Shown here in pieces: positions 1 to 64,000 of a stretch of DNA of 64,000 nt (position 1 is the stretch's first letter; each line of letters begins with the position of its first letter). Made by a program: the position numbers and the translations under genes. Under the pieces are notes generated by a model. The model was given only the letters and a program-made list of their open reading frames with translations, made no database searches and was not told the origin of the DNA. Source of the DNA: a phage; the sequence record OZ335959.1; one strand, written 5' to 3'.

Positions 1-185
1 GTTCTAACTTTATTTCCTTGCATCCAGTGCTTGACGTAAATGAAACCTTGCTCTACACATTTTTTAAAAATTCGTTCGTCTTTTTGAGCTCGGAATTCCG
101 GATTGCATCTAAAAAATTGATTTACGTGACCATAATCACGTGTAGTATTACCTTCATTTTCATAAATAGTGTGAACGACAAACAT
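1..185 (-). CDS. hypothetical protein, N-terminal 61 codons only (gene runs past window start)
   Basis: Open minus-strand frame from ATG at 183-185 (TAATG overlap with stop of upstream ORF) to window edge; absent from ORF track because truncated. Confidence 0.3.
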   Translation of the reverse strand, partial: MFVVHTIYENEGNTTRDYGHVNQFFRCNPEFRAQKDERIFKKCVEQGFIYVKHWMQGNKVR

Positions 186-1024
186 TAGAATGCTCCTTGG
201 AAAATATTATCACCGCTAGTAGGTCTATTATACAAATACTCTATGCCACCAGGTTTAATGTAGTTCCATGTCTGAAACGGATGTGTCTGATATGGATGAT
301 ATAGATGATTATAAGGATTAAATCCAGGCGTTCTCCAGGTAGTGTTCCAAGGAAAAGAATCGTTTTTAACCATCTTCTCAATTAAATCTTTTATAGCTTT
401 TTCACTATCAAAACTTTCTTTATTTTCCTTCGGCGAAAAAAGCTTATTTTCTACATCATTCCATGTATAAACTCGCTGAGCAGTTTTTGGAATATTGTCA
501 CGCTCTCCTCGAGCCATCCAATAAACCGGAACATTTAATATTTCACTCGCATGATCGCAATGGTGAGCGAGATCGTCAATATAACAAATTACGTTATATT
601 TCTCTTTTGCCTTTTTAAACAACTCTTCTTTTGAAGAATCATGACCACACATCATTACTTCTGAGAAGGCACCAGGAAAAAGAGCATTCAAATTAAATTG
701 ACGATTCAGCAGAGCGTCAATAGAATCACCCAATGCTGTAACAGCTACAAAATTATAATCTTCTTTTAATTTGTTAATTACACACAGGGCATCTTTATAC
801 GGAGACAAGTAACGAATAAAATCTGAACGATTGTATTTTTCAATTAGCTTGACACCGAGTTCTTCATCACAATTAAAGAGTTTACCCGGAGAAATAAATT
901 TCTCATCTTGGATCATTTTTAAAATATGTTCTAACGGAAGATTATATTTCTGAGCAAAATAAGGAAGACCTGATTGCCAGCTTAAACATACTCCATCAAT
1001 ATCAGTTAAAATAGTAGGCTTCAT
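185..1024 (-). CDS. hypothetical protein with HAD-like N-terminal DxDG motif (possible nucleotidase/phosphatase)
   Basis: 279-aa ORF; N-terminus ILTDIDGVCLSW resembles the HAD phosphatase motif I; lies in the T4 gene 30.x block. Confidence 0.5.
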   Translation of the reverse strand: MKPTILTDIDGVCLSWQSGLPYFAQKYNLPLEHILKMIQDEKFISPGKLFNCDEELGVKLIEKYNRSDFIRYLSPYKDALCVINKLKEDYNFVAVTALGDSIDALLNRQFNLNALFPGAFSEVMMCGHDSSKEELFKKAKEKYNVICYIDDLAHHCDHASEILNVPVYWMARGERDNIPKTAQRVYTWNDVENKLFSPKENKESFDSEKAIKDLIEKMVKNDSFPWNTTWRTPGFNPYNHLYHPYQTHPFQTWNYIKPGGIEYLYNRPTSGDNIFQGAF

Positions 1025-61231: not shown

Positions 61232-61594
61232 TTAAAAGAATTTAAATTTTTTCTTTGACCTTTTATTAAATGCATCTTGTAGTTGCATTGTAATACATTT
61301 TTCTACATGAGGAGCTAACTCAGCTTTTCTTTCTTGGTCAAGAACAGCAAAGTCCATTACGACTTTTCCATCAACCCAATCTAATTTTGTCACATACACA
61401 ATGTGTGTAGAACCGTCTTCTAGTTTAATGACAATCTCCTGGATAACATTTTCCATGGCAGATTTAATTATCTTAAGAGATTCATTAAAAAGACGTTCTT
61501 TTCTTTCTTCTTCCCCCTCCGAAGAGGGGGATTCATCGATAATTTCTAGATCTAAATCTAAATCATCTTTATTCATTAAATTCTTCCATATCAC
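61232..61594 (-). CDS. 40: gp40 head assembly protein
   Basis: 120-aa ORF between 41 and uvsX. Confidence 0.65.
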   Translation of the reverse strand: MIWKNLMNKDDLDLDLEIIDESPSSEGEEERKERLFNESLKIIKSAMENVIQEIVIKLEDGSTHIVYVTKLDWVDGKVVMDFAVLDQERKAELAPHVEKCITMQLQDAFNKRSKKKFKFF

Positions 61595-62750
61595 TTAACT
61601 GATCTAGGTCAGTTTCTAAATCAGCTGCTGATTTACTTTTACTTTCTGGAGATTTAAATTTTTCAACCTTTGAGTTAATCAATTCATCAACTTCAGCTTC
61701 AACAATTTCATTACTATCAATAGCACCTAACTGATAAGCGCGTTTAATAGCATCTCGGAATGGCTGATGCTTAAATAAAGGACCCCAGAATGTAGTGCAA
61801 TTGGTATCTTTTGCACGCCAAGATTTTTCTTCGCGAATCATCTCGCCGGTTTCTTCGTCAAGAAATTCACGAGCATACCAGCCATTTTTAGGTTTTACCA
61901 CAAATCCTAATTCAAGAGCCATATCTAACAATCCAGAATAAGGATCGATGCCACCGTCAAATTTAACATCAATAAAGAATTTACTTTTTTCTTTAACGGT
62001 ACGAGATTTTTCTACATTTAGAACAAATTGATACCCCTGAAGATCAGAACCATCTTTAATCTGGCGCTTACCGATAATGAATACAGTATCAGCCGAATAC
62101 ATTACGCCTGTACCACCTGTCATCACGGTTTTACTAAACATTTCAATTGTTTCAATTGTATGGTTAACCGCAACACACGGAATGTTTTTAATACTAAAAT
62201 AAGGAGTAACAATACGAAATAATGACTTCAGCGATTTAGCACGAGTCATATCTGCCACAGATTTTTCATTCAAGGCATCTTCCGTTTCTTTCTTAGAAGC
62301 CATATTACCGATTGAGTCGATGAATACAATAACTTTTTCACCACGCTCAATAGCTTCAAGCTGATTCACCATATCAATTTTCAGTTGTTCAACTGACTGG
62401 ATTGGGGTATGAATTACTCGTTCCGGGTCAACTCCCATGGATCGCAAATAAGCGGGAGTAATACCAAATTCGCTATCATAGAATAGACATACCGCGTCAG
62501 GATATTTGTTCAAATACGCCGCAACCATAGTCAAAGACATATTTGATTTAAAGTGTTTAGAAGGACCTGCAAAAATGGTTAAACCAGACTGCATACCACC
62601 GTCAATCGCACCTGAAATAGCGATATTAAGCATTGGGATTTTTGTACGGATTACATCCTTTTCATTAAAGAATTTAGATGTAGTCAGTTCAGCAGTCATT
62701 TTAGAAGTGGAAGCTTTAATCAAACGGGATTTTAAATCTGCAATAGACAT
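61569..62750 (-). CDS. uvsX: UvsX recombinase (RecA-like)
   Basis: 393-aa ORF with Walker A GPSKHFKS and RecA-fold motifs. Confidence 0.92.
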   Translation of the reverse strand: MSIADLKSRLIKASTSKMTAELTTSKFFNEKDVIRTKIPMLNIAISGAIDGGMQSGLTIFAGPSKHFKSNMSLTMVAAYLNKYPDAVCLFYDSEFGITPAYLRSMGVDPERVIHTPIQSVEQLKIDMVNQLEAIERGEKVIVFIDSIGNMASKKETEDALNEKSVADMTRAKSLKSLFRIVTPYFSIKNIPCVAVNHTIETIEMFSKTVMTGGTGVMYSADTVFIIGKRQIKDGSDLQGYQFVLNVEKSRTVKEKSKFFIDVKFDGGIDPYSGLLDMALELGFVVKPKNGWYAREFLDEETGEMIREEKSWRAKDTNCTTFWGPLFKHQPFRDAIKRAYQLGAIDSNEIVEAEVDELINSKVEKFKSPESKSKSAADLETDLDQLSDMEEFNE

Positions 62751-62827
62751 TCATTTTTTCCATAGGCATCATTATATTTTCCTCACTGGTTAAAGATAGA
62801 GTAATTATAACACAATAAATTTAGGCA

Positions 62828-63676
62828 TTAATCAACTGCTATTGGATGAATAGCATTAAACTTATGAAACGCTTCTGATTTTTCTTTGCGCGAAACACAC
62901 ATGCGAAGAACCTTTAATGGCTCGTCTTCTTCACCCAACGATTTTCTCTTTTCAATATTTGATGTTTTCCAACGAGCTTGCTCTGGAAACTCTCTATTGA
63001 TTTGCTCAAGAGCTCTATTATGTTTTGAATTACTACGAATTGAACTACATCCGCCAGGAGCTTGCGCTTTTCCAGATACAACCAGATATTTGAACAAGGC
63101 CAAATGCGGATAACCTTGATTAATTAAATTGAGAAATGCATACATATCTTCGCATAAATCAATTTTTCCATACCCAATTTGTTCTGTTGTAAGTTTTCCA
63201 AGGTCATACCAAGTATTCGTGAATCCATATGAATTTTCACGATAATTACCCCAAGATGAAGTAATTTTAAAAATTGGTAAACGAGCATGACCATGATAAT
63301 ACCCGCAATCCATGGCATCTTCAACGTATTGAATCAATTCATAGAACTGTTCACGGGTTAATTGATTAATTTTATCTACGCAGCGACGATCATCTTTCTT
63401 TCGCATTGAACTCATACGAATAGTAGTATCATCATCAATCATCCAAATTCGTTGACCTGCATACATTTCAGTAATTGCTTTGCGAGTGCCAGCAATTCCA
63501 TTAACATCATCGGGAATAGTTATAATTTTGGCTCTAGACCCGTAAGCGTCATAATAAGCTTTTTCTTCGTGTTCACGTACTACAATATGAGGTTCATAAT
63601 CAGTCGGAAACATATCAAGGGCAGAAACTGCCCCTACGCGTTGATAGCTTGGAATTACGAATTGAATCATTTCCAC
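62828..63676 (-). CDS. DxD-motif glycosyltransferase (GT-A-like); probable DNA hydroxymethylcytosine glucosyltransferase at the beta-gt locus
   Basis: 282-aa ORF with IWMIDDD motif; sits between uvsX and 42 where T4 encodes the 351-aa beta-gt. Confidence 0.55.
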   Translation of the reverse strand: MEMIQFVIPSYQRVGAVSALDMFPTDYEPHIVVREHEEKAYYDAYGSRAKIITIPDDVNGIAGTRKAITEMYAGQRIWMIDDDTTIRMSSMRKKDDRRCVDKINQLTREQFYELIQYVEDAMDCGYYHGHARLPIFKITSSWGNYRENSYGFTNTWYDLGKLTTEQIGYGKIDLCEDMYAFLNLINQGYPHLALFKYLVVSGKAQAPGGCSSIRSNSKHNRALEQINREFPEQARWKTSNIEKRKSLGEEDEPLKVLRMCVSRKEKSEAFHKFNAIHPIAVD

Positions 63677-64000
63677 TCACCATTATAATCTTTTTTCGCA
63701 ATATGAGTTTCGCCAGTTTTCCACCAATGGTCAACCAAATAAAAATGACGGGAATACACATGAAGGCTTCCGACATTCCATATAATGGAACCTGCTTTAT
63801 ACTGACGAGTTGAATCACCTGCATTCAAATCAGATACTAATTTATCTAGTACGTATTTTTGCCATGCATAATCATTACGGAATCCGAAGACTACGTCATT
63901 TGAACGCATGCTTACTACTGCATTGACTTTCTTATCACGAATCAGGTACTGTACTGTATTCGTACACATGAAATCTGACATACCGTCTTTATTGTAGTCA
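63667..64000 (-). CDS. 42: dCMP hydroxymethylase gp42, C-terminal part (gene continues beyond window end)
   Basis: Translation ...DFMCTNTVQYLIRDKK...HVYSRHFYLVDHWWKTGETH matches the C-terminal half of T4 gp42; no true start in window. Confidence 0.85.
   Translation of the reverse strand, partial: DYNKDGMSDFMCTNTVQYLIRDKKVNAVVSMRSNDVVFGFRNDYAWQKYVLDKLVSDLNAGDSTRQYKAGSIIWNVGSLHVYSRHFYLVDHWWKTGETHIAKKDYNGEWK

Follow-up and report, generated by a model that had tools for sequence, protein, structure and literature searches.

A probable T2/T6-type beta-glucosyl-HMC-alpha-glucosyltransferase gene at its customary uvsX–gene 42 position in a Tequatrovirus

Gene order and start codon at the uvsX–gene 42 locus

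The locus between uvsX and gene 42 was evaluated in the window, i.e., the whole 64,000-nucleotide stretch of phage DNA (OZ335959.1) that was analysed. The genes and features assigned at the locus were as follows:

61569..62750, minus strand: uvsX (RecA-like recombinase), the downstream neighbour and a synteny landmark; from the ORF list and annotation in relatives
62751..62827: 77-nt spacer between uvsX and ba-gt
62828..63670, minus strand: coding sequence of ba-gt (ggt, TAGT), 280 aa and stop, probable beta-glucosyl-HMC-alpha-glucosyltransferase; from the ORF list, phrog_842 and PF20691
63671..63676, minus strand: GTG GAA, the two codons by which the listed 282-aa ORF exceeds the 280-aa product, set apart by the ATGA overlap and the start annotated in relatives
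63667..64000, minus strand: 3' part of gene 42 (dCMP hydroxymethylase); from the ORF list and annotation in relatives

In the mechanical ORF list, a minus-strand ORF of 282 aa with a GTG start had exactly the coordinates 62828..63676. A first-pass annotation had placed such an ORF between uvsX and gene 42 without naming its strand, and both the frame and its neighbours were found as claimed, except that the likely start trimmed the product to 280 aa. The third codon of the ORF was an ATG (63670..63668), and with the overlapping TGA at which gene 42 ends (63669..63667) it formed ATGA. Such an overlap is the usual arrangement of translationally coupled T-even genes. Because of this overlap, and because the genes of relatives were annotated from the same ATG (280 aa in Sfk20, with 843 nt, and in T2 and NR1), the start was taken at 63670. 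The protein is thus likely to comprise 280 aa rather than 282 aa, and the GTG GAA codons are probably not translated as part of it. Residue numbering throughout refers to the 280-aa protein. Gene 42 was located upstream of ba-gt and ran past the end of the window. The G+C content of ba-gt was 36.7%, compared with 35.7% for the window, and this comparison gave no compositional sign of a recent acquisition of the gene.

Two small sequence elements were observed beside these genes. A G+C-rich hairpin, TAGGGGCAGTTTCTGCCCTTG, was located at 63616..63636 (minus strand) inside ba-gt codons 11–18, approximately 35 nt downstream of the ba-gt start. The hairpin had a 9-pair stem and a 3-nt loop, and its sequence was also present in T6. 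It is probably not a terminator, because no clear T-run was seen; an effect on translation or on the stability of the mRNA is conceivable. The second element, TGCCTAA with TATAAT 11 nt further on (62804..62827, minus strand), lay directly after the ba-gt stop and upstream of uvsX. The TGCCTAA was MotA-box-like, and the pair resembled a T4 MotA-dependent middle promoter, which makes it a putative promoter only. When the locus was scanned for promoter and terminator consensus sequences, the counts were no higher than those of shuffled controls.

Family assignment, conserved residues and predicted fold

The window protein was matched over its full length by phrog_842, "beta-glucosyl-HMC-alpha-glucosyltransferase", with an E value of 3e-89. 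Moreover, the Pfam profile PF20691 (TAGT, TET-associated glycosyltransferase) scored 39.5 bits, above its gathering score of 27.5, and covered profile positions 2–205 of 205, and it was also found in all 120 aligned family members scanned. No NCBIfam model matched the window protein. The protein was present in 690 phage records (tblastn, phage collection). Since homologues were found at an E value of 1.5e-188 and matches occurred in these 690 records, the ba-gt ORF is judged from its sequence to be real and not a chance frame. The amino acid identity of the window protein was 100% for ESh16, 99.6% for Sfk20, 98.6% for vB_Eco_NR1, 98.2% over 280 aa for T2 and approximately 97.5% for T6. In direct comparison, the numbers of differing residues were 5 for T2, 7 for T6, 4 for NR1 and 1 for Sfk20. 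A second tier of homologues with approximately 64–66% identity occurred in T4-like phages of Klebsiella, Enterobacter and Citrobacter (tblastn), and an exhaustive HMMER search yielded 349 cluster representatives at E <= 1e-3.

The surroundings of the gene were equally familiar. The last 25 kb of the window shared 97–98% identity with ESh26 and ESh16, two phages of Shigella, and with numerous further T-even-like phages, and the source of the window is a Tequatrovirus. The 1.4-kb region around ba-gt was found in 613 phage records, and the order of uvsX, ba-gt and gene 42 was common to Sfk20, T2, T6 and NR1. The identity of the gene and its synteny were observed in these comparisons. The ORF is assigned with high confidence to the T2/T6-type beta-glucosyl-HMC-alpha-glucosyltransferase (ba-gt, also ggt or g-gt; TAGT) that makes gentiobiosyl-hmC, and no evidence contradicting this assignment was met in the analysis. 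The addition of a second glucose of the T2/T6 type had been suggested in the first-pass annotation, and the close identity with the T2 and T6 proteins, together with the phrog_842 match, bore the suggestion out.

Conservation was evaluated by aligning 119 near-full-length family representatives, which had identities of 19–64%, with the window protein. The conserved elements were positioned in the window as follows:

63638..63640, minus strand: codon of R11, in the loop after strand 1 (IPSYQR); R in 119 of 119 aligned representatives
63428..63436, minus strand: DxD motif D79-D80-D81 (GAT GAT GAT), conserved, after strand 74–78 in the model
63146..63151, minus strand: "ED" motif E174-D175, at the start of helix 174–184 in the model
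63035..63055, minus strand: motif G206-G207-C-S-x-x-R212, from family conservation

The DDD at residues 79–81 (81–83 in the 282-aa numbering) was the single D-x-D match in the protein. D80 was present in all 120 family members, D79 in 118 and D81 in 117. In the ED motif, D175 was found in 120 of the 120 members and E174 in 99, whereas in the GGCSxxR motif the counts were 118 for G206, 120 for G207, 104 for C208 and 117 for R212. Hence, D80, D175 and G207 were invariant in the 120-sequence alignment, and I6, P7, R11, R63, D79, D81, G186, G206 and R212 were at least 90% conserved.

An AlphaFold2 model built on the family alignment had a mean pLDDT of 94.5 and a pTM of 0.92. The DDD was positioned directly after strand 74–78, which is the DxD position after the fourth strand, and E174-D175 opened helix 174–184. 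The fold test returned a single Rossmann-like GT-A domain. The GT-A type with a DDD motif that the first-pass annotation had put forward was thereby upheld, and within the predicted model the window protein was confirmed as a single-domain GT-A (GT2-like) DxD enzyme. For the T6 TAGT, a GT-A fold and a sister-group relationship to GT2 have been predicted (PMC13216743). Neither a phmmer search of the PDB with the window protein nor an hmmsearch with the profile of 120 sequences gave a meaningful match. Because both sequence searches of the PDB were negative, the family is taken to be without a solved structure, and the proposed link of the window protein to GT-A enzymes is one of fold comparison only.

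Proposed glucosylation pathway and competing readings

The pathway in the window phage would begin with gp42, which would make 5-hydroxymethyl-dCMP, and hmC would then be incorporated into phage DNA. A phage alpha-glucosyltransferase would put glucose on hmC in alpha linkage. The ba-gt enzyme would then transfer a second glucose from UDP-glucose to the 6-OH of the alpha-glucose in beta linkage, giving gentiobiosyl-hmC. In this scheme, DDD79–81, which is predicted to bind a divalent metal and the diphosphate of the UDP-sugar, would hold the metal and the UDP diphosphate during transfer. The catalytic base of such a GT2-like enzyme would likely be D175 of the ED motif, the candidate for the general base in an inverting, SN2-like transfer. 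The mechanism would be inverting because the UDP-Glc donor is alpha-linked and the product is beta-linked. We infer these residue roles, the dependence of catalysis on a divalent metal and the modification level of the window phage given below. In the literature searched, no modern study was found in which the purified enzyme had been characterised in vitro.

The level of diglucosylation varies despite nearly identical enzymes, from 5% in T2 through approximately 40% in EL, BGP and Geo to approximately 66–72% in T6 and NR1. Because of this variation, the level in the window phage is not certain. A T6/NR1-like outcome is expected, because all family-conserved residues are intact, including the R11 that is lost in T2. 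Roughly two-thirds of the cytosines would thus be gentiobiosylated and the rest would be bare 5hmC, without beta-monoglucosyl-hmC. NR1 and six related phages have the alpha-GT and TAGT but not beta-GT, and HPLC/MS of their DNA gave approximately two-thirds gentiobiosyl-hmC, approximately one-third 5hmC and no beta-glucosyl-hmC (PMC13390438). Deletion of ba-gt from T6 left only alpha-glucosyl-hmC in the DNA, which became a substrate of the Brig1 glycosylase (PMC11078745). Similarly, the BapA deglucosylase accepted the DNA of T6 lacking g-gt as a substrate, but not that of wild-type T6 (PMC13160076).

A TAGT-family transferase of some other specificity, acting directly on bare 5hmC or using a donor other than UDP-glucose, was weighed against the ba-gt assignment. 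The family is broad, as the 349 cluster representatives indicate, and it is not bound to one acceptor, given that 288 of 753 phage genomes have a TAGT without alpha- or beta-GT (PMC13216743). Such solitary homologues, in phages that lack both enzymes, must differ in acceptor or donor. However, the window protein lies within 0–7 residues of the T2, T6, NR1 and ESh16 proteins, the product and deletion phenotype of near-identical enzymes are established, and the locus is syntenic, so that another specificity is highly improbable here.

A functional analogue of T4 beta-gt, which would place a single beta-glucose on hmC left bare by alpha-GT, would suit the genomic position shared with T4 beta-gt, and a GT2-like inverting enzyme would indeed give a beta linkage. 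This reading retains almost no probability, because phages with ba-gt but without beta-gt have no beta-glucosyl-hmC and keep approximately 25–33% bare 5hmC (PMC13390438; PMC13160076), and no sequence or fold relationship to beta-gt was found. An inactive or hypomorphic ba-gt in the window, leaving the DNA essentially alpha-monoglucosylated as in T2, has a precedent in the ba-gt lesions of laboratory reference phages (R11H in T2, the amber codon in T6 MH550421 and the GAT deletion in T6 AP018814), but its chance is tiny, as the window ORF is full length, carries R11, R63, D79–81, D175, G186, G206–207 and R212, and encodes a protein identical or near-identical to those of hundreds of natural isolates.

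Some side observations concerned the reference phages themselves. All the T2 records examined (AP018813.1, MH751506.1 and LC348380.1) encoded R11H in ba-gt, whereas the window encoded R11. The 39-residue N-terminal peptide with H11 was found exactly in only 8 of approximately 680 phage records, namely seven of T2 and SV76, whereas the version with R11 was exact in 332 phage records (both tblastn). An IMG/VR scan returned only 5 loci, from environmental relatives, all of which had R11 and the DDD. In the T6 record MH550421.1 (ba-gt at 2138–2980 of the fetched locus), codon 10 was TAG and the coding sequence was annotated from M20, with 261 aa. In the T6 record AP018814.1 (ba-gt at 2135–2974 of the fetched locus), one GAT was lost in frame from the slippage-prone, DDD-encoding GATGATGAT, giving 279 aa. 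These two different, apparent lesions of T6 may have arisen by mutation in laboratory stocks or by slippage at a trinucleotide repeat.

It was observed 60 years ago that gentiobiosyl-hmC amounts to approximately 5% in T2 DNA and approximately 72% in T6 DNA, although the enzymes are approximately 97% identical. Because R11 is family-invariant and T2 has only this low content, the R11H substitution may be a plausible cause of the low diglucosylation in T2. That the window carries the fully functional ancestral ba-gt allele, and that laboratory T2 is a natural hypomorph through R11H, can be put forward only tentatively. If true, R11H would explain the gap between T2 and T6, and the window phage should show heavy, T6-like diglucosylation. 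No mention of R11H as a cause of the low diglucosylation in T2 was found in the literature searched. The hypothesis concerns T2 and not the novelty of the window, and it is the only, mildly novel thread of the analysis.

The host defences to which phage DNA is open depend on the second glucose. DNA with gentiobiosyl-hmC withstands BapA, a deglucosylase, and in vitro also the glycosylase Brig1, whereas GmrSD-type enzymes still target it (PMC11078745; PMC13160076; PMC13216743). The intact ba-gt of the window predicts a T6-like modification, with no beta-glucosyl-hmC and approximately one-quarter to one-third bare 5hmC, and with it a predicted sensitivity profile. The gene, its product, predicted fold, distribution and host-defence consequences are all already published. 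Hence, ba-gt in the window is a known, intact gene in its usual place and is ordinary for this phage group; its value for the window phage is routine annotation and not discovery.

Comparison with T4 and other glucosyltransferases

The glucosyltransferase genes of T4 were compared with the window protein and with the window as a whole. T4 beta-gt gave a BLASTP E value of 3.4 against the window protein and T4 alpha-gt gave 0.6, both at chance level. The claim of the first-pass annotation that the ORF is not T4 beta-gt therefore held, and the strong homology that would speak against it was absent. In tblastn searches of the whole window, T4 beta-gt, alpha-gt and segA gave nothing significant, with a best E value of 0.011. 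This value belonged to a match of T4 alpha-gt at 386–814 with 23% identity, which was dismissed as noise. It lay inside an ORF at 185..1024 (minus strand, 279 aa) with an N-terminal DxDGV, which was read as HAD-phosphatase-like and is unrelated to ba-gt. In Sfk20 and T6, alpha-gt is found approximately 11–12 kb further on, past gene 47, and beta-gt is not annotated in the uvsX-to-nrdD stretch. By analogy with these two phages, alpha-gt of the window phage would be expected approximately 11 kb past the window end.

The first-pass annotation had presented the locus as a departure from T4. The locus does differ from that of T4 b-gt, but it is not unusual, since alpha-GT with TAGT is the majority arrangement and the T4 pair of alpha- and beta-GT is rare, occurring in 6 of 753 genomes (PMC13216743). 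T4 with its beta-gt is the exception in Tequatrovirus, and the arrangement in the window is no departure from the norm. The T4 beta-gt (GT-B, CAZy GT63, PF09198) resembles the window enzyme in its equivalent locus adjoining gene 42, in its substrate of hydroxymethylcytosine-containing phage DNA, in its UDP-glucose donor and in its beta linkage. The two proteins differ in that they have no sequence similarity, and the window protein is predicted to be GT-A and not GT-B; no GT-B structure was among its best fold matches. Moreover, the acceptor of T4 beta-gt is the hydroxymethyl group, whereas that of ba-gt is the 6-OH of an existing alpha-glucose. In T4, uvsX and b-gt are also separated by segA, which encodes a GIY-YIG homing endonuclease, whereas only the 77-nt spacer is present in the window, and no segA homologue was found anywhere in it.

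The cellular inverting GT-A enzymes of GT2 (S. aureus TarS and TarP, B. subtilis SpsA and E. coli K4CP), together with WrtF and AvpGT, had identities of only 8–15% to the window protein. The acceptor of ba-gt is a sugar on duplex DNA and not a polysaccharide, teichoic acid or lipid-linked glycan. Furthermore, the window protein has a distinct C-terminal region (approximately 213–280) and the family-specific GGCSxxR motif.

The closest known system is ba-gt of T2 and T6, which agrees with the window protein in its length of 280 aa, its uvsX–gene 42 location and its conserved motifs; the ATGA overlap with gene 42 is shared with T2, Sfk20 and NR1. The differences were a few conservative substitutions, e.g., E68 in the window protein and D in most relatives. 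Furthermore, the window protein keeps the family-invariant R11, unlike that of T2, and its gene is free of the lesions of the two T6 records examined, the amber at codon 10 and the deletion in the DDD codons.
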